Shown one piece after another: positions 1-20,221 of a DNA stretch of 64,000 bases. Source of the stretch: Escherichia phage EC150; sequence record ON210137.1; one strand, written 5' to 3'. The notes under the pieces were generated by a model, which worked only from the letters and a program-made list of their open reading frames with translations, made no database searches and was not told where the DNA came from. Every line of letters begins with the position of its first letter. The stretch's first letter is position 1. A program made the position numbers and the translations under genes.

Positions 1-38
1 GCACGATGCTGACCAGACTTTAATTCAATGGGTAAGGT

Positions 39-464
39 TTGATAACACTGGCGGCGGCAAGTATCGCTACTATGGCGATGAGCGATTCACCACTAAATTC
101 TATAAGGTACTCGACCATGGCTCATGTTAAAGACGAAGTGTTGTTTGGCGCAGAGATTAAGAAACGTGTCAGAGAAATGGCAGGAGAAGAAATAATGAAG
201 CCGCTGCGAAAAGGTTTTGATCACATCAATGGCGTATCCGGCACGAAGGAGATGGGCGTGTTGGTAAAAGACATCCGCATTGGCGATGTCATGGTCATCG
301 ACCGACAAGCACGAGTCGTTATCCAGGTGCAACCGAACGATGGTGAAGGTTGCGTCCTATTGAAGCTGAAGAAGCTTTCATCCAGCCCAGCAAAGGCCGT
401 CATCAAGAAGGTATGGCCCGAAGGATTACGCAAACTCATTCGTCGACCTGTGGAGAATGTGTGA
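39..464 (+). CDS. hypothetical early protein (141 aa)
   Basis: Long ORF at window edge, first of a tightly packed same-strand array; stop overlaps next start; no recognisable motif. Confidence 0.45.
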   Translation: MITLAAASIATMAMSDSPLNSIRYSTMAHVKDEVLFGAEIKKRVREMAGEEIMKPLRKGFDHINGVSGTKEMGVLVKDIRIGDVMVIDRQARVVIQVQPNDGEGCVLLKLKKLSSSPAKAVIKKVWPEGLRKLIRRPVENV

Positions 465-700
465 TGGAAGATTATATCAACGCCATGTATATGGCATTCT
501 ATGTCGTGCAACTTCCCAATGGCGCGGTATTCTATGGCGAGTATACCTTTGACGTTCAATATGACGTTTCAGAGCGTACAGTGTTAACAAGGGAGTTGAT
601 TGCGGACCTTAAGGACGACATCAAGCGCGTCGCGCGGCAGCAGTTCAATTTGGATGACACCGTCATCGTTCGAATTACCGGAATAACAGAGGTGCAGTGA
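464..700 (+). CDS. hypothetical protein (78 aa)
   Basis: Start adjusted to internal ATG that overlaps the upstream stop (TGATG); same-strand array. Confidence 0.45.
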   Translation: MEDYINAMYMAFYVVQLPNGAVFYGEYTFDVQYDVSERTVLTRELIADLKDDIKRVARQQFNLDDTVIVRITGITEVQ

Positions 701-1029
701 TGACCCGTGATCAGATACTCGCCGCGCATGAGCGTGAAAAGGTTAAAGAGATTTGGAAAAGGCACAACTACTTTGCCGAATCCTATTATTTCTTAAAGAA
801 GTGCATAAAGGAAAATGCAAAGATGGACAGTACAACATTAACATTTCGTTTATCTCCACATATAGCAAAGCTTAATGCGATATGCGCTTGTCGACTAGCA
901 AGTATGAAGTTCGATAGAGGAAATGACGGAGAGTTGACCATCTATCGATTCTCCCACCGGACCGGAGACACGAAGATAACAAGGACGCGTGAAGAGCTGG
1001 AGATTGACCTACTCCACTATGTAAAATGA
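700..1029 (+). CDS. hypothetical protein (109 aa)
   Basis: ATG 7 nt after GAGGTG, overlapping upstream stop; followed by hairpin plus U-tract. Confidence 0.5.
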   Translation: MTRDQILAAHEREKVKEIWKRHNYFAESYYFLKKCIKENAKMDSTTLTFRLSPHIAKLNAICACRLASMKFDRGNDGELTIYRFSHRTGDTKITRTREELEIDLLHYVK

Positions 1030-1038
1030 ATATCAAAA

Positions 1039-1068
1039 AGGTGAGCTAAATGCTTGCCTTTTCTTTTA
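1039..1068 (+). terminator. rho-independent terminator, copy 1 of a duplicated terminator-promoter element
   Basis: 8-bp stem AGGTGAGC/GCTTGCCT (two G-U pairs, so it folds only in plus-strand RNA), 5-nt loop TAAAT, then TTTCTTTTA. Confidence 0.5.
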
Positions 1069-1114
1069 TCAATACTTATACTCTTTTCATCAAGACTAAC
1101 AAGCGAGGTGAATT

Positions 1115-1363
1115 ATGGAACGTTATATAGATGCAGAGTGCTTGATAAGTGCAGGTTTGAATGAGGCTGTAGAAGGAAGTAAATATGCCATCTGTCAATC
1201 TGATTATCCGTACAAAGATACTTTTTGGATTGAATTTGGATCAAAAGGGAGTAAGCACCACGCCACTTATGACGTTTGGAAAGCACCAAGCGGACTTTTT
1301 TACATTTTAAAACGTCATTGCCAGCCAGAGTCAGGCGTATTGGCTGTCTTCAAGGAGGTGTGA
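1115..1363 (+). CDS. hypothetical protein (82 aa)
   Basis: GAGGTG ribosome-binding site a few nt upstream of ATG. Confidence 0.5.
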   Translation: MERYIDAECLISAGLNEAVEGSKYAICQSDYPYKDTFWIEFGSKGSKHHATYDVWKAPSGLFYILKRHCQPESGVLAVFKEV

Positions 1364-1365
1364 TT

Positions 1366-1683
1366 GTGATTTACTTAGGCATCGACCAGGAACAAGACGA
1401 GCGGTTAGGAAGCGTGTTAAACGTAGACTTGAACACAGCTGTACACATCAAGCCTTGGCCAGAGGACCACGGCGACGTAGTTGTACCCGTTGCGCCTTGG
1501 ACGCGTTACGTTGCCATTGACAATAACGGCCTTGTTCATTGTTACTCAGAAAGGCCAACGTATTTCGAGATGTACCGCGAATGGCTGATGACTAGTTGGG
1601 CAAAGGTGCGCTGTTGCGGCGAAGTCGGCCTGGAGGGGTGGAGCTTCGAGGCTAGTGAATCGTGTGTCGAGGTGAAATTATGA
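1366..1683 (+). CDS. hypothetical protein (105 aa, GTG start)
   Basis: GTG 7 nt downstream of AGGAGG, directly after upstream stop; Trp/Cys-rich product. Confidence 0.4.
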   Translation: MIYLGIDQEQDERLGSVLNVDLNTAVHIKPWPEDHGDVVVPVAPWTRYVAIDNNGLVHCYSERPTYFEMYREWLMTSWAKVRCCGEVGLEGWSFEASESCVEVKL

Positions 1684-1898
1684 ATGCCGTGCTGGGTAAG
1701 CTGTCTTTCAACAAGCGCAATGAGTTGCGCATGGTGTCTCGTTTTCAATTTTTATTAAATGCTATGTCAAGCGTTGCCATAGCAATGCTTCGCGCTGATT
1801 GCCCTGCTGAAAAGCGTGAGACTTTATTCAAGCGTCACCAACAATTACGAAATGCTGCTTATAAACTGCAGCAATATGCTATGGAGTATGCAAAATGA
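1680..1898 (+). CDS. hypothetical protein (72 aa)
   Basis: Start adjusted to internal ATG overlapping upstream stop (ATGA). Confidence 0.45.
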   Translation: MNAVLGKLSFNKRNELRMVSRFQFLLNAMSSVAIAMLRADCPAEKRETLFKRHQQLRNAAYKLQQYAMEYAK

Positions 1899-2287
1899 GA
1901 ATGAAGCGTTGCCCTTACTGCCACGATGTAATGCATCTTCCACATGAAGAGTTTGTGCAGCACATGACTAATTGTGATAAGAATCCTAAGAGCGAAAGCC
2001 AGCTTGAAGAAAGAATGTTTCTGGTGTCGTTTAAAGCTTCTGCCTATGGCGTGAAACTGGCTTATGGCGCGAGCGGCGCACCAAGTGCTATCAACTGCCC
2101 AACGACATTGAGAAGTGAAATCGACTCGATGCAGCTTGCGGCTTGGATTAACGTCAAGGAAGGCCTCACGCCGCACTTCATCGCGCGCATCCAGTCCCAG
2201 ATTCTTCAAATCAAGCGCGAATACAACCGCGACGTTACTGAAGTGAAGGTCTTGTCCATCACGCCGATGAATAAGGAGCTGGCTTGA
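1895..2287 (+). CDS. hypothetical protein, possibly zinc-binding (130 aa)
   Basis: CPYCHD...H...C Cys/His cluster near N-terminus; ATGA overlap with upstream gene. Confidence 0.5.
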   Translation: MRMKRCPYCHDVMHLPHEEFVQHMTNCDKNPKSESQLEERMFLVSFKASAYGVKLAYGASGAPSAINCPTTLRSEIDSMQLAAWINVKEGLTPHFIARIQSQILQIKREYNRDVTEVKVLSITPMNKELA

Positions 2288-2544
2288 ATAAGGGACCGAT
2301 GGCGCCACTGGCCCTTGCCGCGCGGAAGCTTCGACAGGCCGTTAATGGGTCGCGGCCCGTGGTGTTAACACTAGACGATGCAAAGGCACTGGTAGAGCTA
2401 CTCGACGAGAACAACCGACGCAAGAATAGAGAGAACACATTAAAGTACCGCGTCACGCCAGCCGGACGCGAGTGTGAAAAGAAAGCTTACTTGCGGCGTA
2501 AGTTAAGGTCAGTCGGTCTACACGAAGAAGCCGACCAGATTTAA
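2284..2544 (+). CDS. hypothetical protein (86 aa)
   Basis: ORF in same-strand array with start overlapping upstream stop; followed by terminator copy 2. Confidence 0.45.
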   Translation: MNKGPMAPLALAARKLRQAVNGSRPVVLTLDDAKALVELLDENNRRKNRENTLKYRVTPAGRECEKKAYLRRKLRSVGLHEEADQI

Positions 2545-2551
2545 TTCGAAA

Positions 2552-2580
2552 AGGTGAGCTAAATGCTTGCCTTTTTATTT
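2552..2580 (+). terminator. rho-independent terminator, copy 2 of the duplicated element
   Basis: Same stem-loop as 1039-1059 (AGGTGAGC TAAAT GCTTGCCT) followed by TTTTTATTT. Confidence 0.5.
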
Positions 2581-2622
2581 GTCTGTATTATACTTACTTC
2601 ATCAAGCAAAGGAGAGGTTATT

Positions 2623-2928
2623 ATGAGTACCGAAGCTATGAAGAGCAAGTTGTTTGAGGTGATGCAGCCCGCTGTCGAGTGCGGAGCTATTCAGGAGTTC
2701 AAAGAGACGCAAGAAGGCGGTGAGCCAGTATTCTTCTTCAAGAACAAGAAAGGTGCGGCGGCTGCGGTGATGCTCTTGAAGAACAGCGACACGACCTTTA
2801 TCCTTTGCGCAGGCGGTTATGACCTTGTTGCCGATGATGCCTACATCACCTGTGCGACGGGTCTTAATCCTATGTTAACGTTTGAGCGTCGCGGCATTCG
2901 TGTTGCGACGTTTGGAGGCGGTTTATGA
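2623..2928 (+). CDS. hypothetical protein (101 aa)
   Basis: Start adjusted to internal ATG 5 nt after AAGGAGAGG. Confidence 0.5.
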   Translation: MSTEAMKSKLFEVMQPAVECGAIQEFKETQEGGEPVFFFKNKKGAAAAVMLLKNSDTTFILCAGGYDLVADDAYITCATGLNPMLTFERRGIRVATFGGGL

Positions 2929-3110
2929 GCACCGAAGTCCATAACGCATCAGCACTGGTAAGCTTTTACCGAAACAAAGGCGTGTCGCTAGTTAAAACGC
3001 CGCAAGGCATGCTGTTCTTTGGCACGCGATTCCTTAAGGCTTCGGAGCGTGAAACGCTGTCTAAATTCGACCAGAAGACATTACACGCAGTTTGGAGAAG
3101 ACAGCAATGA
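2925..3110 (+). CDS. hypothetical protein (61 aa)
   Basis: Short ORF with start/stop overlaps on both sides. Confidence 0.35.
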   Translation: MSTEVHNASALVSFYRNKGVSLVKTPQGMLFFGTRFLKASERETLSKFDQKTLHAVWRRQQ

Positions 3111-3307
3111 CATCAAATCTTAAGGCCCGTTTATTATTCATCAAGCCGCATGTGCCGTATAAGATTAGTAAGCGCACCTGGATTAACATTTACAACCGCA
3201 GCGGCGACCGTTGTTTGTACAAGGCAAAGCGGCGCAAGAAGGTATATTTAAAGGCTGTGATGTCGCAACCCGTCGATGCATTCAACATCGGCGAAAATGA
3301 ACTGTAA
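3107..3307 (+). CDS. hypothetical basic protein (66 aa)
   Basis: Internal ATG overlapping upstream stop (ATGA); track ORF begins with TTG at 3092. Confidence 0.4.
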   Translation: MTSNLKARLLFIKPHVPYKISKRTWINIYNRSGDRCLYKAKRRKKVYLKAVMSQPVDAFNIGENEL

Positions 3308-3339
3308 ATCGGCTATCAAATTGAACTCGGAGTAAAGAA

Positions 3340-3849
3340 ATGAAAATCGAACAACTCGAAGCAGTATTGGAAATGGCTGTAAAGGCAGGCGCAATCAGAA
3401 GCTATAGCCGCGAGAAGTCGGATGACGCTGCGCACTTTTGTCGCAACTTCTATATCGTCGGCAACCTTAATGACCACTACACCATCGAGTGGTATACTAA
3501 TATGATGGCTCTTAAGTCGCGCACCATGGAGCTTTGGTGTGATGATGTCTGCTTATCCAACACCCATCCATCCTACGACGTTGCGTTAGCATTCTATTAC
3601 GGAAGCCGTCAACCTGTCGCCCACATCGGTGAGAAGTATGAGCACCTTAAGGCGCGACCAGAGGAATCAATGGACGGTTGGATTTATTGGGCTGGCGTCA
3701 ACAATCCTGTTCCTGGTAAGAAGGTCATGTTTAAATTGCGCTTCGGCTATGAATCTAAATCACCTGCTCTTTCAGATGATTTGAGATGGGAGATTGTTGA
3801 CGATGCTTATGCAACTGACATCATTGCTTATCGAGTCATGGAGGAATAA
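3340..3849 (+). CDS. hypothetical protein (169 aa) sharing a C-terminal domain with 5004-5429
   Basis: C-terminal ~58 aa (W.G.NPVPGK.V.F.L..GY.SK...SD.L.W...AYRV) is paralogous to the C-terminus of the 5004-5429 product. Confidence 0.55.
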   Translation: MKIEQLEAVLEMAVKAGAIRSYSREKSDDAAHFCRNFYIVGNLNDHYTIEWYTNMMALKSRTMELWCDDVCLSNTHPSYDVALAFYYGSRQPVAHIGEKYEHLKARPEESMDGWIYWAGVNNPVPGKKVMFKLRFGYESKSPALSDDLRWEIVDDAYATDIIAYRVMEE

Positions 3850-4190
3850 TGGAAGAGCAAGAAGGCCGTGAGCTAACGTTCGACGAGCAAATGCAAGAGC
3901 TTCAGCGCACATCGTCGCTGCGCGGTAAGGTTGTTGACATCGAGGCGAGCGAATCCAACCTCACCCAGTGGCGGCTCAAGTGCACCAGCACAAGCAAGGA
4001 TATGTTAAGCTTCAAAGTCGGTCAGACTTATTTGCTTTATGAGGCAAAAGGACTTATTATTGATGGAAGGCAAATTGTCTTCACGGTAGTCAGCGGAATG
4101 CATTGGTTCGTGAAGCGTGATGTCGAGGGCCGTGACATGTTTGTCGCAGGATTTCCAGAAACAAGATTCCAATTGGAGAAGGTTAAATGA
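3849..4190 (+). CDS. hypothetical protein (113 aa)
   Basis: ORF in same-strand array; start abuts upstream stop. Confidence 0.5.
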   Translation: MEEQEGRELTFDEQMQELQRTSSLRGKVVDIEASESNLTQWRLKCTSTSKDMLSFKVGQTYLLYEAKGLIIDGRQIVFTVVSGMHWFVKRDVEGRDMFVAGFPETRFQLEKVK

Positions 4191-4519
4191 AATTGAAATG
4201 GTACGTGGACCCTGAGACGACAGGCTCATACAGGTCATTCCAACGTCGCGGCTGGCCGATTTGTTACAGCGGCAATCCCGATAAAGAAGACTGCGAGATG
4301 CTCGCCGCGATAGTAAGTCTTAATCATGACGGCTATGAAGGCCACTACGCGAGAGCAACCAACCTTCGGCTCAAGGTGCGCATCCATTTCAAGGTCGCAG
4401 GCGAGGACCGCACCGGACTCTCCAAAGAAGAGTTCAGCAGCATTGCCGAAGCAAAGGCATGGCTAAAGGCGTTCTACAAGGCCAATCCTAAATTTTATCC
4501 AACTAAGGGTGCATCATGA
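4187..4519 (+). CDS. hypothetical protein (110 aa)
   Basis: ORF in same-strand array; ATGA overlap. Confidence 0.5.
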   Translation: MKLKWYVDPETTGSYRSFQRRGWPICYSGNPDKEDCEMLAAIVSLNHDGYEGHYARATNLRLKVRIHFKVAGEDRTGLSKEEFSSIAEAKAWLKAFYKANPKFYPTKGAS

Positions 4520-5007
4520 CTAACAAAACGCAACGCATCAATTTTGAAGGTAAAGAATACGAAATAGACGCTCGTGCAAGATTCGTTGCGCGCGATTCTA
4601 ACGGAACCATCTGGGCGTATGAGGGAAAGCCTGCATGGAACGATTGGTGCGGCCAGTGGGGATATGCAATTGGCGATTCACTTTGGTGTAAGCAAATTGG
4701 TGATGGAAAGATGTTCAAAGAGAATAAACCATCATCACGTGATTCATTGAAGGAAGTCGAATCAATCAAAATCCAAGACCAAGCGCCATCGACAGATAAC
4801 CAATACGCAGTCGGGCAACGTGACATCGAGCAACTCGACGAGGGCGGCTATTATACGCGCCACATCTATGCCATGACGCATGAAGGACTTTGCAGCAAGT
4901 CGGACATCGCCGCTGAACTGGCCCATCGTGACTTACAAATCGACCTTCTCAAGATAGAAGTGCAGAACTTACGAAACACCCTGTTAAATACTTGGAGCTT
5001 AAAATGA
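4516..5007 (+). CDS. hypothetical protein (163 aa)
   Basis: ORF in same-strand array; ATGA overlap. Confidence 0.5.
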   Translation: MTNKTQRINFEGKEYEIDARARFVARDSNGTIWAYEGKPAWNDWCGQWGYAIGDSLWCKQIGDGKMFKENKPSSRDSLKEVESIKIQDQAPSTDNQYAVGQRDIEQLDEGGYYTRHIYAMTHEGLCSKSDIAAELAHRDLQIDLLKIEVQNLRNTLLNTWSLK

Positions 5008-5429: not shown

Positions 5430-5962
5430 TGGGCGGCTTTTGGCGTAAAGCTAAATACTCTAAAGACTTGCATTACTTCTTGGATAATGAAGGCATAAGT
5501 ATATGTGGTAGGTACAGAAGGGATAATGAATCAGCGTCGCAAAGTAATAAGGCTGAATGGTTACTCAAGGAAGAATGCAAAGTTTGCCGCAAACGTTTTT
5601 GTGACAAAACTAGCATAACTGATTACATAAAGGAGCTTAGAAAAAGATGTAAAAGCCCGCAAGAGTTTGCCATAGCTCTTTGGGATGATCACCCTGAGTT
5701 GAGAAGCGAATGGTTAAAGACTGATGCAATCAATTATATCTTCAAATCGAAATACAGGACGACAGCAAGATATAAAATGGATGAAGCAGTAATTCAGAAG
5801 GTATTTTCTTATTGGAGGGATACAGTCGATATTGTGAAAATAAAGAAATACCAAAACGAAGTGCTGCTGGAATTGGAGAGGATTGGCTATAAAGTCACCA
5901 ATAAAATGATAAAAGAAGAAATAAAAAGGAGAACGGAAAAGGGACTGATGCCTAAGATATAG
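5426..5962 (+). CDS. hypothetical basic Cys-containing protein (178 aa)
   Basis: AT-rich coding region whose composition differs from neighbours; no recognisable domain. Confidence 0.45.
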   Translation: MMGGFWRKAKYSKDLHYFLDNEGISICGRYRRDNESASQSNKAEWLLKEECKVCRKRFCDKTSITDYIKELRKRCKSPQEFAIALWDDHPELRSEWLKTDAINYIFKSKYRTTARYKMDEAVIQKVFSYWRDTVDIVKIKKYQNEVLLELERIGYKVTNKMIKEEIKRRTEKGLMPKI

Positions 5963-6209
5963 TGAATAAACGAACACTGTTTACGTGTTTTGAAGAATGG
6001 AATGTGTGCAATGGGTCGCTTTATGCGGCCTTTTGTCGTTTGGGTCGTGTTTTGCGATGGAATAATTATGATGAGGTGTTTTATTTATTGATTGTGCGGA
6101 AATATTTAGAAATATATTTCATAGGTCGTGTCTATTGGTCCGTGGTGTTTGTTAGATTATATCTATGGATTGAAATTTTAGTGTCGTGAAACGTGGTGTT
6201 TGAACACAT

Positions 6210-6575
6210 TTGATACGCCTAAAATACGGCTAAAAATTAAGCGTATCATGGCTGCAGGCCGCGTCGTTCCTGGATTCTTCTTTTTAAAATTGGTACACCC
6301 TTACGTCATGATACGTCATGGTTTTTTATCCGTATCAGTGTACAGCCCTTGCCGCGCCTGGCTTGTACATTAATCTTACGGATGATACGGATAAAACTGG
6401 GCATCGTTATATATAAAACTCCAAAAATAAATAAACTCCATTTTAAAAACATTTATATTAATTTTTTTCATATCCTCATACTTATGTTAATTTATATATT
6501 TAACGTATCATCCGTAAGATATAAGTAAAAACAAAGACTTGCGGCAATACGGATGATACGTCATGATACGCTTCA
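6210..6575. repeat. repeat-flanked AT-rich element, copy A
   Basis: Multiple copies in both orientations of CGTATCATCCGTA / TACGGATGATACG (9-mer unit TCATCCGTA) flanking a ~100-bp AT-rich core (6400-6500); homologous to 22190-22460. Confidence 0.6.
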
Positions 6576-6717
6576 ACCAGCCAGCAGCGGCTAAGTCATT
6601 GATTTGCATAACAAGCGGCGAAAGGGATGGATTTCTTTTATACGTATCAAACAGTACACCACGCACCACGGTCCGCTATTCATTCAGTACTATGATTTGT
6701 GTACGTTTACAGCCAAT

Positions 6718-6746
6718 TTGAACATCAATCTGCACTTGAATATAAT
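6718..6746 (+). promoter_or_regulatory. sigma70-type promoter, near consensus
   Basis: TTGAAC, 17-bp spacer, TATAAT, about 50 bp upstream of the ATG at 6799. Confidence 0.55.
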
Positions 6747-6774
6747 GTTCATTCATTGTATAATTCACACTATT

Positions 6775-7981
6775 AATTTGCACTATGGGATTTGCACTAT
6801 GAGTCAAGATTATGTAGCAATGCCTGAAGACTTTGAAGACCCGCGATTTGCAGAGCATAATCAGGCATTATTCGATGAGTTCATTGACCTTGTTATTCAG
6901 GGCCATGACATGCGCGCAGCTTTTGCACTAGTATTTGGCATGGAGGTTGCGACCGATAACTACACTGGCCAGCGAGTCCTCTGCACGCAACGCAATCCGT
7001 ACTACAAGATGCGCTACAAAAAGCGTATGGAAGAGATGCCATTGAAGGAATTGTGGAGCGTAAAGAGTTCCATCCACAATTTAGTGAAGCTTGTGCGTGA
7101 TCCAGAAGTCGCGGCGTCAGCCAAGCTTAATGCCATTCGTGAACTGAATATCATCTACGGCATCACGATGATTGATGAGAATGGCAATAGTAAAATGGGC
7201 CGTTCCATGGACGATTTCTACAAGGATTTTGGAGAGGCAGCCAAAGAGGGTGAGCAATTCTCCCGCCACTAGCCAATTTGCACTATAAAACGGCCCTAGA
7301 ACACATTTTCTCCACTTCTAGGGCCATCGGTAATACGACGGGGAAGGTTACAACCATAAACGCGTTAGAAAGTGTATTATTATAAGTCATCTTTTAGTCA
7401 CTTTACGTAACAATTTACGACCTTCCGCCGTCCAGTCGAACGACTCCACCAGCAGATTTGCACTATAACCTAAGACGATGCGCCCTTTCTCGTTATCGAC
7501 CCGCCAACAAGTCTCGAATAGCATTCGATTTGCACTATTAACTATCGCCGCAACGCGCGCTGGGTAAGCGCAATTTGCACTATGGTCGTAAAGGGATAAG
7601 GTGCGACCACTTCCGATGGACAACGTAGCGATGAGAATAAGCGTATTCATAAGCCACCAATTTGCACTATGAAAAGCGACCCCGAAGGGCCGCCATTCGA
7701 TTAGATGATCTGGAATGTGTATGACTTGTTGCCGAACTCGAAGTTCAAGCGCCCAGCTTCCTTAAGCTTCATGCGGAAGCGAATGTGCTTGCTATCCGGT
7801 AATCCCAGCGCGATGAAAGCTACGCGGACCGATTTGAACTCGCCTACACCCTCGACCATAACGCCGTTACGGGTGAGACGCTTTTGCGCCACTTCCTTAT
7901 TATCCCAACTTTTTGCAATGCCTTCGCTATTCGAACGGCGATGGGAAGAAGTTCCATTTTGCACTACGCAATTTGCACTAT
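6775..7981 (+). repeat. array of 9 same-orientation copies of an AATTTGCACTAT-like 11-12-mer
   Basis: Copies at 6775, 6790, 7275, 7456, 7528, 7572, 7659, 7956 and 7970; irregular spacing; two copies overlap the start of the 6799 gene. Confidence 0.6.
6799..7272 (+). CDS. hypothetical protein (157 aa), possible regulatory or DNA-binding protein
   Basis: ATG embedded in a motif copy and downstream of the near-consensus promoter; function is inference only. Confidence 0.5.
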   Translation: MSQDYVAMPEDFEDPRFAEHNQALFDEFIDLVIQGHDMRAAFALVFGMEVATDNYTGQRVLCTQRNPYYKMRYKKRMEEMPLKELWSVKSSIHNLVKLVRDPEVAASAKLNAIRELNIIYGITMIDENGNSKMGRSMDDFYKDFGEAAKEGEQFSRH

Positions 7982-8327
7982 CGTTTAGGCCGCTCTTAAC
8001 GAAGGCTTCATACTCTTCGTCGGTCATCGCGTCGAGTTCTTCCTGAGTCGGCTCAGACTTTTTAACGACCGCACGCGCCTTATGCGTTTTTACATCGCTG
8101 GGCACTTCCTCGCGCGGCTTCGCGTCGGGAATGGGCGATTCGTTGGACGGCTCATCGAGCGCGTTCAAGGACTCGATTAACGCGATTACGCGAGTCTCGG
8201 CGGTCCGGCGGTCCGCGAACTTTTTAATCGGCTTCGAACCGGAATTTGCGTTGTAAAATGCAACGAGGTCGGCGGTCTTAGTTGCGATAACGTCGCCGCT
8301 AGTCGAGAAGCGATTTAAGCTAACCAT
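7701..8327 (-). CDS. hypothetical protein (208 aa)
   Basis: AGGAG 6-7 nt upstream of start at 8327; 5' half CpG-rich like the adjacent island; 3' part overlaps two motif copies so extent is uncertain. Confidence 0.5.
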   Translation of the reverse strand: MVSLNRFSTSGDVIATKTADLVAFYNANSGSKPIKKFADRRTAETRVIALIESLNALDEPSNESPIPDAKPREEVPSDVKTHKARAVVKKSEPTQEELDAMTDEEYEAFVKSGLNDSANCVVQNGTSSHRRSNSEGIAKSWDNKEVAQKRLTRNGVMVEGVGEFKSVRVAFIALGLPDSKHIRFRMKLKEAGRLNFEFGNKSYTFQII

Positions 8328-8407
8328 AATAAACTCCTATTTGTTAGGGCGCTAAGCGCGAAAGAATTTTATTAAAGCGCCGCGCACGACGCTCTTAAAA
8401 TCCTCTC

Positions 8408-8692
8408 TTACGCTTCGACGAGGGAGAAGGTTTCAAATTCTTCTTCGCCCATAACGAGTAAAATATTCCCGATTTCGACCGCTTCGAAGAAGTATCCGTT
8501 AACGTTTACTTCGAAGGCTTCGCGGTCCGATTCCGGTAACGCCGCGTAAAGTTTAAAAGCCTCGGCGACCGTTACCCCACCCGCTTCGATAGTTTGGTCT
8601 ACGTTCGCGGCGTAGACTTCGGATAAATTTTGTTTTACGCCGTAGTTCTCGACGATAGCGTTACGGATAGAAGAAACGTTAAGAATAGCCAT
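8408..8692 (-). CDS. small acidic protein (94 aa), paralog of 9326-9616
   Basis: N-terminus and V.(V/I)NG(Y/F)...(V/I)EIG block align with the 9326-9616 product; conserved leader CTCCCAACTAGGAG upstream. Confidence 0.55.
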   Translation of the reverse strand: MAILNVSSIRNAIVENYGVKQNLSEVYAANVDQTIEAGGVTVAEAFKLYAALPESDREAFEVNVNGYFFEAVEIGNILLVMGEEEFETFSLVEA

Positions 8693-8832
8693 TTTAAACT
8701 CCTAGTTGGGAGAGGCGTTAACGACCTATTCGTTAACTCATCCCGTCCCGATATGAGTACATTATAATATAGTGTAGAAAAAAGTAAAGCACTTTTTCGA
8801 TAAAAATGCGATAAATTATTTTATCTTTTTCC

Positions 8833-8860
8833 TTTACTTCTTCGTACACTCGCGTATACT
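8833..8860 (+). promoter_or_regulatory. sigma70-like promoter, duplicated element copy 1
   Basis: TTTACT, 16-bp spacer, TATACT; whole ~45-bp unit (CTTTACTTCTTCGTACACT ... TTTATATCGAGA) repeated at 9229-9272. Confidence 0.4.
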
Positions 8861-8915
8861 TGTTTATATCGAGACGGGCGATGGCCTTCCTTCTACTAGC
8901 ATCGGGAGTTTTATT

Positions 8916-9218
8916 ATGACTACTTTAATCTCTTCTATCCTTACTTACGACGAAGACCGTTTAACCGTTCGTTCTCTTATCGCCGCCGTTAACGCGGAAC
9001 TAGAATCCACCATCATTAAGGTCCGCGCGGTCGCTTTCGTCGGCCTTTCCTTCGACGATATTAAGTATGCCGAACGTAGCGCCATCCGCTTCGCGAAGAC
9101 CGACGACGAAGCCGTTACCCTTATCGAGACGGTTACGCCGCGCGGCGAAGCGTTAATTATCGTCGAGTATATCGACGTAGAGGGCGATAAGGCTTATAAA
9201 TATTTTATCGCAAAATAA
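8916..9218 (+). CDS. small acidic protein (100 aa)
   Basis: ORF with its own copy of the duplicated promoter; CpG-rich codon usage unlike the rest of the window. Confidence 0.5.
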   Translation: MTTLISSILTYDEDRLTVRSLIAAVNAELESTIIKVRAVAFVGLSFDDIKYAERSAIRFAKTDDEAVTLIETVTPRGEALIIVEYIDVEGDKAYKYFIAK

Positions 9219-9229
9219 CGAAAAAGTGC

Positions 9230-9258
9230 TTTACTTCTTCGTACACTAAGACTATAAT
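9230..9258 (+). promoter_or_regulatory. sigma70-like promoter, duplicated element copy 2
   Basis: TTTACT, 17-bp spacer, TATAAT; same unit as 8832-8874. Confidence 0.4.
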
Positions 9259-9325
9259 GTTTTATATCGAGAGGGGAGAGGAAGCGAATAGGTCGCCTTC
9301 CCGCCCTCCCAACTAGGAGAATATT

Positions 9326-9616
9326 ATGATTACTTTATCCGCTATCCGTTCCGCTCGCGTCGAGACTTCCGAAAACTCTAACGTATTTGGCGAAACCTTA
9401 GAGAGCGTTTATCTCTCTAACGTCGACGCGACTATCGAATCTATTTATGAGCCGATCAACTTCCTCGACCTTTACAAGTATCGCGACGAGGACATCGTAT
9501 CATCCCGCGTAACTATCAACGGCTTCGTCTATACGATTACCGAAATCGGCGGCGAATATATCGCGGTCCCGCAACTCGGCGGCGAAGTAACTTATTTTAA
9601 AATCGTCTCCTTATAA
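9326..9616 (+). CDS. small acidic protein (96 aa), paralog of 8408-8692
   Basis: Aligns with the 8408-8692 product; AGGAG RBS inside conserved leader CTCCCAACTAGGAG. Confidence 0.55.
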   Translation: MITLSAIRSARVETSENSNVFGETLESVYLSNVDATIESIYEPINFLDLYKYRDEDIVSSRVTINGFVYTITEIGGEYIAVPQLGGEVTYFKIVSL

Positions 9617-9781
9617 TACCCTTCCGTTACTAATAGGCCGCGCTTAGTCGCGGCTTTTCTTCGTCCCTATCCCGATGCGCGTCTACGCGAAAACTCCTTT
9701 ATCCTTCCCTTCGTCGTCGCATAATCTTCTTCGAGATGCTCCTTAGTTCGCATAACAGGTATTACGTTAAATGGAGAACAT

Positions 9782-9854
9782 CGCGTAAGTCCTTGTTTTA
9801 TATAGACACCTATATCGGACCGTTAGGGCGGGTCGCGTAAGTCGTTGTTTTATA
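9782..9854. repeat. 21-bp direct repeat, 2 copies
   Basis: CGCGTAAGTCCTTGTTTTATA at 9782 and CGCGTAAGTCGTTGTTTTATA at 9834. Confidence 0.4.
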
Positions 9855-9979
9855 AAGGCGCAAAACTTTCCCTTCGTTCCGAACTAAAACGAGAAATGTG
9901 CCGACCCTTCGCCCGAAAATAGTACGTATGCGAAATTACATGCATCTCGAATAATCCCTCCCGATATTATCCTACACGC

Positions 9980-10042
9980 AATCATTCGCTTTCGAATCAT
10001 TATGCTTCATATTGTTATGCGTCGAATCATTCGCTTTCGAAT
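9980..10042. repeat. 18-bp direct repeat, 2 copies
   Basis: AATCATTCGCTTTCGAAT at 9980 and 10025. Confidence 0.4.
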
Positions 10043-10131
10043 TGTAACGCTGGAAACTGTAACGGCGATTGATTATTGCGTTCGTGTGGTTTTTATGGCA
10101 TGGGTCTTTTGGTGCGTTTTGGTACTTGATG

Positions 10132-10244
10132 AAATTTGCAGTACACTAATCAAAATACGACACATTTGGTCCACTAACTTTTCAAAGAAAAAGTCCTAGA
10201 CAGTACCGTACTATTTTGTACCCACAGGAAATTTGCAGTACACT
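10132..10244 (+). repeat. 16-bp direct repeat, 2 copies, related to the AATTTGCA motif family
   Basis: AAATTTGCAGTACACT at 10132 and 10229. Confidence 0.4.
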
Positions 10245-10314
10245 CCTGCGCGGCAGGCAAAACAAAGGGCCGCACTAAGCGACCCACGATTCACGGTTAA
10301 ATCAGCAACACCCA

Positions 10315-10695
10315 CTATTCGCTCTTATGGGCATCACCAAAGCCATCCGCAATCTGGCTGATCAATGATTCAATGGACACAGTTTTACCAATTGATCGAG
10401 CGGTAATAGCAAGCATATTATCAATCAAACCATGATTGGATGCGTATGGTTCAGGTTTTGAATCATCTTCAGGACAACCAAAAAGCTGGTCGCGCAAACT
10501 TTCGAGAGAACGCTCAACATTTTCCAACTTCTCTTCTAAATCGGATTGGCGACGTAAAACCCATGTCAAGTCACGGTTGCCAACTTCCAATCCATCAGAA
10601 TAGCAAGGTGGAGCGTCAATTTTGTTGCTGGAACCAAAAGCAGTGCCGCTGCCTTTAGTATAAGTATGGCTCATAGAATCATTTTTATTTGACAT
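10315..10695 (-). CDS. hypothetical protein (126 aa)
   Basis: Minus-strand ORF in accessory block; no recognisable domain. Confidence 0.45.
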   Translation of the reverse strand: MSNKNDSMSHTYTKGSGTAFGSSNKIDAPPCYSDGLEVGNRDLTWVLRRQSDLEEKLENVERSLESLRDQLFGCPEDDSKPEPYASNHGLIDNMLAITARSIGKTVSIESLISQIADGFGDAHKSE

Positions 10696-15566: not shown

Positions 15567-17027
15567 ATGAATAAAATATTAACACATAATTGGAAAGTCA
15601 TGTACCAGTTGAATCCTGCTTTAAGAGAAGTCTGGAAGACGAAAGCGCGATACAAAGTCATATACGGCGGTCGTGCATCTTCCAAATCGCACGATGCCGC
15701 TGGTTTTGCTATTTATTTGGCGGCAAACTTCAAATTAAAATTCCTTTGCGTTCGACAATTCCAGAACAAGATTTCTGAATCAGTATATACGCTATTAAAA
15801 GACAAAATAGAAATTTCTGATTTCAAAGACGAGTTCAACTTATTAAAGAACTCTATTGAACACAAAAGAACAAAATCTGAATTCTTATTTTACGGTATCG
15901 CACGCAACGTTGATGAAATCAAATCAACAGAAGGCGTTGATGTTCTTTGGCTTGAAGAAGCGCATGCGCTGACTGAAGAGCAGTGGGACATCATTGAGCC
16001 GACAATTCGTAAGGAAGGGTCCGAAATATGGATCATATTTAACCCTGATGAAGAGGCTGATTTTGTCTACCAGAACTTTGTCATGCGACCGCCGAAGAAT
16101 GCCATCGTTAAGAAGATTAACTGGCAAGACAACCCATTCTTGTCGCAAACAATGCTGGATGTTATCGCTGGCATGTATGAGCGCGACCCGAAAAAGGCAG
16201 AACACGTTTATGGCGGAGTACCGAAGACTGGCGGCGACAAGTCGGTAATCAACCGTGCATTCGTCAAGGCCGCGCTAAACCTCCACAAACACCCTACGCT
16301 GGGATGGAGCTTGTCAGGGTCTAACCGTATAGGCTTTGACGTGGCGGACGACGGCGACGACTTAAACGCCACAGCATTTGTCACTGGCAACGTATTGCGC
16401 GGCATCAAGACATGGGAAGGTCTGGAGGATGAATTGCTTAAGTCCGCAAGCGGAGTCTGGAAAGACGCATTGACATTCGGCGCATCAATCACCTATGACG
16501 CCATCGGTGTTGGTGCATTTGCTGGTTCAAAATTTGATGAGCTTAATGAGTGTGCAATCCATGAAAATCCAACATTCCCAAGAATCGAATTTAATGCGTT
16601 CAACGCGCAAGGTGCTGTTGATGATCCTGATGACGTTTTCCTTGAGTTACCACACGTTGAAATACTCAATAAAGACCATTTCGCAAACATAAAAGCGCAA
16701 AAATGGACTGAGATTGCCGAACGATTCAGAAAGACATATGAGTATGCGACAGGGCAAGCCGTATATCCGACCGATGAGTTGATTTCCATCGACACAGACG
16801 GCATCCCAGAACTTGGTATTCCCGCTTGGTCTGCGGAAGAGATTGAGACGTTTCTTTTTGAGATGTCAGCGCCGCGCAAAGATACGTCTGTTCTTGGTAA
16901 GTTCAAAGTTGAATCGAAAAAAGATATGGCAAAGCGTGGAGTCAAATCGCCTAACAAAGCGGACGCAGCAATCATGGCATTGATGAAACCAATTGTTGCA
17001 GCATCCGGCTTCTTCTCTAACCTTTAA
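15567..17027 (+). CDS. terL: terminase large subunit
   Basis: 486 aa; Walker A-like GGRASSKS; LWLEEAH Walker B-like; C-terminal nuclease-like region with acidic residues. Confidence 0.9.
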   Translation: MNKILTHNWKVMYQLNPALREVWKTKARYKVIYGGRASSKSHDAAGFAIYLAANFKLKFLCVRQFQNKISESVYTLLKDKIEISDFKDEFNLLKNSIEHKRTKSEFLFYGIARNVDEIKSTEGVDVLWLEEAHALTEEQWDIIEPTIRKEGSEIWIIFNPDEEADFVYQNFVMRPPKNAIVKKINWQDNPFLSQTMLDVIAGMYERDPKKAEHVYGGVPKTGGDKSVINRAFVKAALNLHKHPTLGWSLSGSNRIGFDVADDGDDLNATAFVTGNVLRGIKTWEGLEDELLKSASGVWKDALTFGASITYDAIGVGAFAGSKFDELNECAIHENPTFPRIEFNAFNAQGAVDDPDDVFLELPHVEILNKDHFANIKAQKWTEIAERFRKTYEYATGQAVYPTDELISIDTDGIPELGIPAWSAEEIETFLFEMSAPRKDTSVLGKFKVESKKDMAKRGVKSPNKADAAIMALMKPIVAASGFFSNL

Positions 17028-17807: not shown

Positions 17808-17845
17808 ATAGATTGATTCCCTTTCACTGTCAGGTGGCGTTAACA

Positions 17846-20221
17846 ATGAAAATTCTTGGCATAAAACTCTGGGAGAAGACGCAACCAGAAGCCGAACCAG
17901 CGGAGATGCCGCCAGGCGACCCATTGGCACCGTTTGAACGCCTTGAAAGGCGCGGCAGCGGTCAACGCTGGGAAAAGACTGAAAGCAATCGACCGACCTT
18001 TAAAACGGTTGATGACTTCCCTTTATATGAGCCTGATATTAATGGCGATGGTGTTGCAATCATAAAAGGTCGTTCAGTCGATTCCGCAACAGTATCCAAA
18101 AAGGTTATGGATAATGCCTTAAAGAACATCAGTTCAGAAGGGCAAGTCAACCCATACACAGTACCTATTCAACTTCAAAACTGGTATTTGTCACAGTCAT
18201 TCATCGGCTATCAAGCTTGTGCCATCATCGCACAGCATTGGCTGGTGAACAAGGCATGTTCCATGGTAGGCCGCGATGCGGTCCGTAAAGGTTGGGAAGT
18301 CAAATCCAGTTCTGAGTCAGAATTGTCAGTACAGGCAAGCGAACGCCTAAAGCAAATTGATAAAGAATTTAATATCAAAGAGCACTTAGTTGAAGCCGAA
18401 CGATTCAAAAATATTTTTGGTATCCGCGTCATCATATTTGATGTGCGTAGTGATGACCCAGAATATTACAGCAAGCCTTTTAACATTGATGGTGTGACAA
18501 AGGGGTCTTATAAGGGAATCATTCAGGTTGACCCTTATTGGATGATGCCGTTTCTGACGTCTGAAAACACAGCAGACCCTGCATCACAGCACTTCTATGA
18601 CCCAGAATATTGGGTAATCAGCGGACAACGTTATCATCGCAGCCACCTCATAATCTTGCGCAACGATGAGCCAGCTGATATTCTCAAGCCGACTTATATT
18701 TACGGCGGCATTCCTCTGACTCAGCAGATTTATGAACGCATCTATGCCGCTGAACGTACCGCCAACGAAGCGCCATTGCTGGCGATGTCCAAGCGTACAA
18801 CGACGCTGCGGACCGACGTTGACAAGGCTATTGCCAATGAGCGGTCTTTTGCAGAACGTCTGATGATGTGGATCAAGTACCGCGACAACTATGCAGTCAA
18901 AGTGCTTGGCCAAAAAGAAGAGATGGACCAGTTTGACATCAACTTGTCAGACTTCGACAGCATCATCATGAACCAGTACCAGCTTGTGGCCGCAATCGCA
19001 AAAGTTCCGTCGACCAAACTGCTTGGGACTTCGCCAAAAGGCTTTAACGCCACTGGTGAATTCGAGATGGTCAGCTATCACGAAGAGTTGGAAACGTGCC
19101 AGCAGCATGACCTGACAAAAATTCTCGACCGCCATTACAAAATCCTTCTCAAATCAGAAGGGGTGGATGTCGATGTTAAGGTTGCATGGGAACCAGTTGG
19201 CTCACTTACTGCTACTCAACTTGCAGAAATCAATGATAAGCGAGCCAACACTGGCAAAACTCTTATTGATGCTGGCGTCATTTCTCCTGATGAAGAGCGC
19301 GACCGCATCAAAGACGACAAAAACAGCGGCTACAACCGTCTGCCGGAAGACGCAGCAGAAGAAACCCCAGGGATGTCTCCAGAGAATATGGCATTGCTTG
19401 GCAAGTCTGCTGGTGAAGTCCTGCAAGGTAAGGCCGATATTGAACAGGCGAAAGCTGATGTCGTTAAGATGGGCGGCCAGTTCTATAGCGAAACAGGTAT
19501 TATGCCAGAGGGTGCCGCGCGCGGTGAGTTGGCGGAAAACCCTGACAAAGCGCCTGTCGAAATCAACATGGACGATACCGATGATGAATCGAGCCATCAC
19601 ATTGATGTCCTAACGCAGTTGAAAGAAGGGCTGGAGGGTATTGCGGATTACTACCTGAAAGAAGGTCAGGATGTGGATTTTGACCCTCAAAAAGATTCAC
19701 GGTCGGTGCAACCGTCTACCCTTCCAAGCGTTAAAGGACACGTAGTCAACTTACGCCACAACGTGGGTAAAATGGACGCAGCATCATTACCTAAGATGAA
19801 GTTGCACGGAATGATTCTTGGCATTGAGAATCCGCGAAACAGCATTCGTAGAGGAAACAGCATTGACGGTGAATGGGCCGTGAAGATGCCGCACCACTAC
19901 GGATTCATCAAGGGCACCAAGGGCGCAGACGGTGATGAAGTCGACTGCTTTGTGGGTCCAAATCTGAAGTCGCCGAAAGTCTTTATTGTGAACCAAAACG
20001 ATAACTACTCTGGCGAGTTTGATGAACACAAGTGTATGCTTGGATTCGATTCAGCAGAAGAAGCGAAAGAAGCTTATCAAGCATCATTTGGTAACGGTTG
20101 GAACGGCTTCGACTCAATCCACGAATTAGATGTGAACTCATTCAAGGAGTGGTTGAAGGGTGATTGCTCTCAAGCATACGGAGCACTCAATAATCCTACT
20201 AATTCACCGAAGCAAGGTTGA
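17846..20221 (+). CDS. portal protein with C-terminal inorganic-pyrophosphatase-like extension
   Basis: 791 aa from ATG after AGGTGG; position after terminase; C-terminal ~150 aa contains HYGFIKGTKGADGDEVDCFV, matching the family I pyrophosphatase signature as recalled. Confidence 0.8.
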   Translation: MKILGIKLWEKTQPEAEPAEMPPGDPLAPFERLERRGSGQRWEKTESNRPTFKTVDDFPLYEPDINGDGVAIIKGRSVDSATVSKKVMDNALKNISSEGQVNPYTVPIQLQNWYLSQSFIGYQACAIIAQHWLVNKACSMVGRDAVRKGWEVKSSSESELSVQASERLKQIDKEFNIKEHLVEAERFKNIFGIRVIIFDVRSDDPEYYSKPFNIDGVTKGSYKGIIQVDPYWMMPFLTSENTADPASQHFYDPEYWVISGQRYHRSHLIILRNDEPADILKPTYIYGGIPLTQQIYERIYAAERTANEAPLLAMSKRTTTLRTDVDKAIANERSFAERLMMWIKYRDNYAVKVLGQKEEMDQFDINLSDFDSIIMNQYQLVAAIAKVPSTKLLGTSPKGFNATGEFEMVSYHEELETCQQHDLTKILDRHYKILLKSEGVDVDVKVAWEPVGSLTATQLAEINDKRANTGKTLIDAGVISPDEERDRIKDDKNSGYNRLPEDAAEETPGMSPENMALLGKSAGEVLQGKADIEQAKADVVKMGGQFYSETGIMPEGAARGELAENPDKAPVEINMDDTDDESSHHIDVLTQLKEGLEGIADYYLKEGQDVDFDPQKDSRSVQPSTLPSVKGHVVNLRHNVGKMDAASLPKMKLHGMILGIENPRNSIRRGNSIDGEWAVKMPHHYGFIKGTKGADGDEVDCFVGPNLKSPKVFIVNQNDNYSGEFDEHKCMLGFDSAEEAKEAYQASFGNGWNGFDSIHELDVNSFKEWLKGDCSQAYGALNNPTNSPKQG

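Follow-up and report, generated by a model that had tools for sequence, protein, structure and literature searches.

The DNA analysed here is a 64,000-nucleotide stretch of Escherichia phage EC150 (sequence record ON210137.1; hereafter, the window, meaning the whole of that stretch). It belongs to Wifcevirus, a group of Escherichia coli and Shigella myophages of about 68 kb, and is 93–96% identical to WFC, WFH, ECML-117, Mansfield and Bas98-101. The small terminase gene of the phage, terS, is embedded in an array of short same-orientation repeats, or boxes, of the form (A/G)ATTTGCACTAT, which begins 117 bp ahead of terS and ends 709 bp beyond it, about 1.3 kb in all, inside the long direct terminal repeat (DTR) of the genome. 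The genes and features at the locus are given below in window coordinates, the boxes being scored in bits with the weight matrix described after the list.

6440..10109, no strand: DTR containing the array; left physical end at 6440, right boundary at about 10109, or at 10190 if the WFC record is followed.
6682..7007, plus strand: five weaker boxes of 10.8–15.2 bits, starting at 6682, 6727, 6762, 6920 and 6994.
6736..6764, plus strand: putative terS promoter, a sigma-70-like consensus match, TTGAAT-17-TATAAT, agreeing at 10 of 12 positions.
6775..6786, plus strand: strong box AATTTGCACTAT in the 5' leader of terS, 19.8 bits; invariant in 14/14 Wifcevirus genomes.
6789..6800, plus strand: strong box GATTTGCACTAT, ending with the A and T of the terS ATG; one additional T in 5/14 genomes.
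6799..7272, plus strand: terS, small terminase gene; phmmer E = 1.3e-32 to PDB 7UXE; annotated TerS in phage Mansfield.
7275..7286, plus strand: strong box beginning 3 nt past the terS stop codon; the equivalent site is occupied in the Pantoea phages Kyle (803) and PA1 (3943).
7387..7650, minus strand: orf87, open in 14/14 genomes, with three boxes inside; homologous to open reading frames (ORFs) of PA1 and Kyle.
7446..7453, minus strand: Chi site GCTGGTGG, oriented for RecBCD entering at the left genome end and abutting the box at 7455.
7455..7466, plus strand: strong box inside orf87, with the minus-strand reading H-S-A-N-C; co-oriented with the abutting Chi site.
7527..7538, plus strand: strong box inside orf87, reading N-S-A-N-R.
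7572..7583, plus strand: strong box inside orf87, reading Y-S-A-N-L; invariant in 14/14 genomes.
7659..7670, plus strand: strong box in the short spacer from a terminator-like hairpin to the orf87 start; invariant in 14/14 genomes.
7701..8327, minus strand: conserved gene, phrog_4730, carrying the 7956/7970 box pair.
7956..7981, plus strand: box pair ATTTTGCACTAC and AATTTGCACTAT, 14 bp apart, inside gene 7701-8327.
10132..10152, plus strand: related box AAATTTGCAGTACACTAATCA, 12.7 bits, beginning 23 bp past the right end of the DTR (about 10109).
10229-10244, plus strand: second, partial related copy, with a matrix site at 10230.

Eight copies of AATTTGCACTAT with at most one mismatch are present (6775, 6789, 7275, 7455, 7527, 7572, 7659 and 7970), all on the plus strand, where 0.67 are expected by chance (100 shuffles, none of which reached eight). 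A degenerate ninth copy, ATTTTGCACTAC, lies at 7956, and these together account for the nine irregularly spaced plus-strand copies that a preliminary description of this DNA had listed. Most of the positions given there hold, with 6790, 7456 and 7528 being starts of the 11-mer and the 12-mer beginning one base before each; of the two copies said to overlap the start codon of the 6799 gene, the one at 6789 does so and the one at 6775 lies in the 5' leader. There are ten occurrences of the exact 9-mer TTTGCACTA, on the plus strand only and always inside 6777-7980, including a copy at 6922, within gene 6799-7272, that was absent from the earlier list.

Scanning the window with a 14-nt weight matrix built from box copies of three phages (cut-off of at least 10 bits) recovers 17 plus-strand sites, of which 14 fall in 6682-7981, two at 10133 and 10230, and one elsewhere; the four minus-strand sites are scattered. 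The complete genome of the relative Bas100, scanned with the same matrix, gives the same pattern, and the copies are confined to this region in both sequences rather than recurring at similar density elsewhere, the outcome that the preliminary description had named as refuting its observation. The matrix adds to the strong set the five weaker boxes between 6682 and 6994, of which that at 6727 lies over the -35 of the terS promoter, that at 6762 over its -10 and start region, and those at 6920 and 6994 within terS. In Wifcevirus, the stretch from about -80 to +30, which takes in the promoter, leader and start codon of terS, is overlaid by five boxes. Successive spacings of 13, 14, 131, 74, 281, 180, 72, 45, 87, 297 and 14 bp are irregular and show no helical phasing. 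Five successive distances, 486, 180, 72, 45 and 87, are all multiples of three, in part through the three copies in the orf87 frame, and we take the remainder to be coincidence. The array is real, strictly polar, and confined to the terminal repeat beside terS. A literature search on the motif string returned unrelated papers only, the Wifcevirus papers found do not discuss the motif, and Rfam gave no match on 5900-10500.

The ends of the genome can be placed from public records. Position 1 of both the Mansfield and the WFC records maps to window position 6440; the Mansfield record carries a PhageTerm-predicted DTR at 1-3673 (3,673 bp), and the terminal repeats of WFC and WFH are reported as about 3.7 kb (PMC6563267). 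The right boundary differs among records, lying at about 10109 for Mansfield (PhageTerm) and SP13 and at 10190 for WFC. The array occupies the part of the DTR 240–1540 bp from the left physical end, its first box at about 240 bp and its first strong box at 335 bp. The left end falls within an AT-rich palindrome (6423-6466), about 300 bp from the array, which is flanked by a 27-nt inverted repeat (6363-6389 / 6504-6530), and around it (6211-6650) are about a dozen TGATACG/CGTATCA boxes on both strands. Kyle has other boxes, AATATCCGAA and GGTTATT, at the corresponding place on its left end. The TGATACG-type element is a second candidate recognition element for the terminase.

At the right end, the related motif AAATTTGCAGTACACT is present at both positions previously given for it, 10132 and 10229, and the Kyle counterpart, AATTTCACAGTACACTAATCA, lies 24 bp outside that phage's own right DTR end. 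A related same-strand box thus stands just outside the right cut according to two independent terminus determinations in two genera. The heptamer AGTACAC has plus-strand copies in both genera, some 200 bp in from the left end and again a little beyond the right boundary (6653, 10140 and 10237 in the window; 183, 205 and 3635 in the Kyle locus, L142). The right repeat boundary is held by a non-coding stretch of about 600 bp between convergent terminators (9660-10260), which has repeat families of its own, GGGTCGCGTAAGTC..TTGTTTTATA and GAATCATTCGCTTTCGAAT, each present twice; AATCATT/TAATCA-type boxes occupy the corresponding place in Kyle (L142 3440-3600).

The product of the gene at the centre of the array had been given as an example of a phage early protein, and its match to PDB 7UXE identifies it as the small terminase. 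That structure, solved as 10 chains, is listed as the decameric TerS of Pseudomonas phage E217 (PMC9611059). With the product known to be TerS, the gel-shift assay that had been suggested for it becomes a specific packaging-site hypothesis. The large terminase, TerL, is encoded at 15567-17027 (Pfam scan). In terS, 47 of the 56 variable sites are at codon position 3. The same bias marks the two minus-strand genes that carry boxes: position 3 holds 30 of 39 variable sites in orf87 and 98 of 131 in gene 7701-8327. The annotated 35-codon ORF at 7283-7390 has no such bias. Four copies had been described as falling in a stretch with no convincing gene; three of these, at 7455, 7527 and 7572, are within orf87, which by its codon-position bias and its open frame in all 14 genomes is a real gene.

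The orf87 product is a small protein with a signal-peptide-like N-terminus. Its family has two conserved Cys residues and its genes are antisense to the box array, one in Wifcevirus and two in the Kyleviruses (4099-4383 and 4380-4649 in the PA1 locus, L009; 938-1225 and 1222-1431 in L142). Pfam returned nothing significant for nine neighbouring proteins, and PHROGs placed them in families of unknown function only. A profile of the phrog_4730 protein found nothing significant among PDB sequences, and its best 120 homologues are all at least 97% identical, giving no useful alignment for folding. Single-sequence AlphaFold2 models were too poor to use, with a predicted local distance difference test (pLDDT) score of 44.5 for TerS, in which a helix-turn-helix could not be located, and 37 for the phrog_4730 protein.

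Elsewhere in the repeat, three strong sigma-70-like promoters at 8761-8788 (minus), 8833-8860 (plus) and 9230-9258 (plus) precede its small genes and share the extended form (GC)TTTACT-N16/17-TATAAT, which is kept in Kyle (L142 2400-2500 and 2870-2905); the arrangement is reminiscent of T5, with an early or pre-early module within the repeat. By eye, 7700-9620 is rich in CG-containing tetramers (TCGA, CGCG, TTCGAA) relative to its neighbours, which suggests another codon or dinucleotide style. ECML-117 and vB_Eco4M-7 have an extra 70-codon gene after a 96-codon gene (L144 3099-3308), annotated as a transcriptional regulator in RefSeq for the ECML-117 copy and absent from the window (about 9606-9611). 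Outside the repeat, the portal protein (17813-20221; Phage_portal_3, E = 3.5e-88) bears a C-terminal inorganic-pyrophosphatase-like domain (PF18823, E = 3e-46).

Homologues of TerS occur in Pbunavirus, Kylevirus, Myosmarvirus, Carpasinavirus and others, and among the loci retrieved with a TerS profile the box array is found only in Wifcevirus and Kylevirus. The two Kyleviruses compared, PA1 and Kyle, encode TerS proteins 41–43% identical to that of the window (43% for PA1). PA1 has 17 copies of G[CT]ACTA on the plus strand, from within terS to about 700 bp downstream, and one on the minus strand of its 7.4-kb locus; Kyle has 16 boxes on the plus strand at 477-1478 and four on the minus strand of 7 kb. 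The consensus is A-T-T-Y-G-C-A-C-T-A-Y with an invariant GCACTA core. The geometry is likewise kept: the Kyle terminal repeat is 3,603 bp long, and its terS start lies 356 bp from the end, compared with 359 bp in Wifcevirus.

Identity at third codon positions between orf87 homologues is just 0.36–0.37, so the boxes are not merely undiverged sequence. Two readings of them occur, x-S-A-N-x (NAT AGT GCR AAT) and V/L-V-Q (NTA GTG CAA), and at one homologous position the DNA core is shifted by one base, giving FNLVQNG in PA1 (CTA GTG CAA AAT) and FNLSAKG in Kyle (CTT AGT GCG AAA). The codon preceding AGT is invariably NAT while the amino acid it encodes varies (H/N/Y/D), and the Ser and Asn encoded by the box are invariably AGT and AAT, other third positions being near saturation. 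Further copies lie in untranslated DNA and, on the opposite strand, inside terS. Because the box is read in two frames of homologous genes, these comparisons of sequence across two genera show that selection on the boxes acts on the DNA and not on the peptide.

Individual copies vary within Wifcevirus, the box at 7455 having the T>C variant ATTCGCACTAT in 6 of the 14 genomes, and the 7956/7970 pair sits in a 16-aa insertion of the gene 7701-8327 product relative to its PA1 homologue. Related lineages have repeats of their own at this locus: Myosmarvirus carries its own 20-mer in three copies just downstream of terS, and one metagenomic relative lineage a different 9-mer in five copies upstream of it. 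Contigs were also scanned for box pairs 30–60 bp apart (viral contigs) or 24–54 bp apart (metagenomes) and filtered afterwards; among the matches listed, real arrays were found only in Wifcevirus, the others being tandem satellites, coding repeats and chance matches.

A second oriented signal is present in the left part of the repeat. Wifcevirus has a single Chi site abutting the 7455 box in 11/11 loci checked. Kyle has nine Chi sites in its first 2 kb (L142 255-1972) and PA1 has seven (L009 3361-4933), all in the same orientation, and the Myosmarvirus loci (L167/L168) have four oriented for RecBCD entering from the left end. The plus-strand boxes of the window (n = 14) and of Kylevirus (n = 33) are co-oriented with Chi sites active from the left end, and in Kylevirus boxes and Chi sites are interleaved. 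Kylevirus TerS ends in a C-terminal tail (…L/S-H-Y-P-P-A…) whose codons are those of a box with a Chi site directly after it, TTGCACTAC CCACCAGCA (L009 3940-3965; L142 800-822), and, as these sequences read, the last residues of the protein are dictated by the two DNA signals. Our literature search found no report of terminal Chi clusters for this phage group.

What the boxes do may be read in several ways, and transcription offers two of them. They may be operators for a phage transcriptional regulator, TerS or another DTR-encoded protein, that would tune or shut the convergent transcription units of the repeat, with no role in packaging. The boxes that blanket the terS promoter, including its -35, -10 and start codon, are as such a regulator would need them; moreover, the array lies where plus-strand terS transcription meets a minus-strand operon running from the promoter at 8788-8761, and by eye a box follows each of two minus-strand terminator-like hairpins. 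However, the terS promoters of Kyle and PA1 bear no boxes, most copies lie hundreds of bp from any promoter and in coding DNA, three other strong DTR promoters (GCTTTACT-N16/17-TATAAT) are box-free in Kyle, and Pfam and PHROGs recognised no regulator with a DNA-binding domain among the DTR genes. We consider a purely regulatory role unlikely, if one to be reckoned with. That the boxes are themselves promoters, whether for a single-subunit phage RNA polymerase or for that of the host, is in our view very improbable. The CACTAT core is similar to T7/SP6/K11 promoters at their positions -7 to -2, and all copies point inward from the genome end. This likeness, which had prompted the suggestion of SP6/K11-type promoters in the preliminary description, is confined to CACTAT; only 11–12 nt are conserved, ending before the would-be start site, with the bases after TAT varying, and most copies, those in 7275-7981, face no plus-strand gene. 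As had already been remarked, no phage RNA polymerase is visible in the window: Pfam detected no such domain in the seven ORFs of at least 450 aa (portal, transglycosylase-domain protein, DUF2612 protein, tail fibre, Pol III alpha-like polymerase, TerL, and one without a match), and none is annotated in the complete Bas100 genome. As sigma-70 promoters the boxes would share no -35 and, were TAT to begin the -10, would leave positions -9 to -7 unconserved; no promoter-like site in our scan uses a box as a hexamer, and the terS promoter is upstream of the strong boxes. Other known elements were compared with the box by consensus sequence and were dropped: EcoKI sites, the marbox, the RfaH ops element, sigma-54 promoters (a TTGCA element is present but the -24 element is missing at the right spacing), the T4 MotA box (7/9 matches but no -10 at 11–13 bp downstream) and the DnaA box (7/9 matches in Wifcevirus and a poorer fit in Kyle).

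Readings that set transcription aside lean on the geometry of the array or on the peptides written across it. A polar signal, Chi-like or directed against nucleases, might be read on one strand, not by a static docked protein but by a moving enzyme such as a nuclease-helicase or the packaging or ejection machinery; together with the true Chi sites it would manage the exposed left end, through protection or through recombination between the terminal repeats, as a phage-borne code for end management, able to overlie genes whatever their reading frame. Every copy does have the same direction relative to the nearby physical end, in company with the co-oriented Chi sites, and irregular spacing with indifference to the underlying genes is typical of such signals. 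The Bas100 genome has no annotated recombinase, and known examples of Chi clusters at genome ends come from P1 and from lambdoid phages without recombination modules (PMC12315714). Even so, the 11-bp AT-rich box is unlike known Chi sequences, the hosts of Wifcevirus and Kylevirus use canonical Chi, which leaves a second signal without an obvious reader, and the proposal is drawn from geometry; we find it improbable. We know of no enzyme that recognises the box sequence. Replication-origin iterons bound by a phage initiator would also present many same-orientation copies of one short sequence, and the AT-rich palindrome at 6423-6466 lies about 300 bp away, but the palindrome coincides with the physical end, which accounts for it otherwise. 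The spacing of 13 to about 300 bp without helical phasing, the scatter of copies across 1.3 kb of DNA with genes on either strand, the want of an adjacent initiator-like gene by Pfam or PHROGs, and the distance of more than 35 kb to the replication genes make iterons decidedly improbable. Of the earlier proposal of sites for a phage regulator or a replication initiator, binding by a phage protein remains the best reading, and the initiator finds no support in the anatomy of the array. The boxes could, last, be a by-product of the repeated peptide x-S-A-N-x in small minus-strand proteins with no function as DNA, given that three copies in the window and several in PA1 and Kyle read S-A-N in real genes; the second frame (V-V-Q) at homologous positions of the same gene family, the copies outside translated DNA, over the start of terS and, on the opposite strand, within it, and the fixed AGT and AAT codons amid near-saturated third positions render this exceedingly improbable.

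Judged from sequence, the array is most likely a protein-docking zone for genome packaging. We favour this because it lies around terS near the cut site, its DNA is conserved in two genera, a related box stands at the other repeat boundary, and related genera have lineage-specific repeats at the same locus, as expected of a site and a binder that co-evolve. Adjacency to terS and closeness to a physical end, both features of pac/cosB-type sites, are found in the array. More specifically, and with a probability of roughly 0.4, the boxes would serve packaging as a zone of recognition and loading, TerS being the foremost candidate for the binder, and would double as an operator on the terS promoter. 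Its three steps, that a protein binds the boxes, that TerS is this protein and that packaging is the purpose, are ones we infer.

On this packaging model, one sequence-specific protein encoded by the phage would bind the boxes as double-stranded cis-acting sites, and the boxes would jointly make a polar loading zone in the DTR by which the phage's own DNA is recognised for end formation and packaging. The 14 boxes from about 240 bp inside the left cut might be occupied by several TerS rings or by some other protein encoded in the DTR; the occupied array would mark the repeat and orient the large terminase toward its cuts, and the other cut would be flagged by the related box 23 bp beyond the right boundary. 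Binding at the five boxes of the terS promoter, leader and start codon would also, in Wifcevirus, throttle terS expression. Such repression would fit the reported dose sensitivity of E217 to TerS (PMC9611059).

Several observations weigh against this model. DNA binding by E217 TerS in vitro is described as poor or not appreciable (PMC9611059), and 14–17 sites spread irregularly over about 1 kb are unlike known pac or cosB sites. The repeats at the left cut are of a different family (TGATACG) and differ between genera, while the GCACTAY box stays the same; its constancy across TerS proteins of about 42% identity would suit a host factor, or a binder more conserved than TerS, no less well than TerS. 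The box-free terS promoters of Kyle and PA1 mean that an operator role is not general. Among the 14 Wifcevirus genomes, 93–97% identical, box columns are 19% variable compared with 16% in their surroundings, though identity this high makes footprinting within the genus uninformative, and the 7956/7970 pair is missing in 3 of the 14, so at least some copies are dispensable. The box-bearing lineages share [Q/R/K]-R-N in TerS where other lineages have E-x-N/T, a suggestive but weak signature that is inseparable from shared ancestry; the co-variation among lineages is likewise confounded with phylogeny.

End recognition and cutting are poorly understood in phages with long DTRs (T5-like, SPO1-like, and the PB1/Wifcevirus group, which includes therapy phages). 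If the array is a terminase recognition zone, it would be unusually large and strictly polar, placed within a long terminal repeat, where it overlaps genes of both strands, and it would provide the first candidate DNA target for the structurally solved E217-type TerS family. In any case it is a clean example of a DNA signal kept inside genes on both strands and in two reading frames. Because such a cis signal lies inside genes, it matters for synthetic recoding and rebooting of these phages, in which synonymous recoding of the region could break cis function.

Several known systems invite comparison. T7/SP6/K11 promoters are conserved over about 19–23 bp, from -17 to +5, with a gene downstream, whereas the box has 11–12 nt. 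Terminal Chi clusters, as in P1 and the lambdoid phages without recombination genes (PMC12315714), are likewise oriented short sequences near one end, but the box differs from Chi and is not known to be read by any translocase. The iterons of lambda ori, P1 oriR and R1 parC share with the array multiple direct copies of one short sequence; they are regular, tight tandems (about 20–22 bp) beside an initiator or partition gene, whereas the boxes are irregular. T7 and T3 reportedly have short repeat arrays, SRL and SRR, beside the terminal repetition, which Dunn and Studier are said to have described in 1983. Their function may relate to concatemer processing. These phages too have a DTR, with about a dozen same-orientation short copies irregularly placed beside the genome end; the T7 units, however, are 7 bp long and non-coding and flank a 160-bp repeat at both ends, whereas the array consists of 11-bp boxes inside a long repeat and within genes, and the sequences are unrelated.

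The pac or cosB sites of P22, SPP1, P1 and lambda are located in or beside the small-terminase gene, examples being the R sites of lambda cosB, the hexamer clusters of P1 pac, SPP1 pacL/pacR, and the P22 pac inside gene 3. Those known sites have 1–7 boxes in about 20–200 bp, whereas the array has 14–17 over 1–1.3 kb, in one orientation, inside a 3.7-kb DTR and over genes on both strands, with TerS as its putative binder. Both consist of short repeated boxes in or next to terS, near the site where the end is cut, and in both the terminase gene may overlap its own site.

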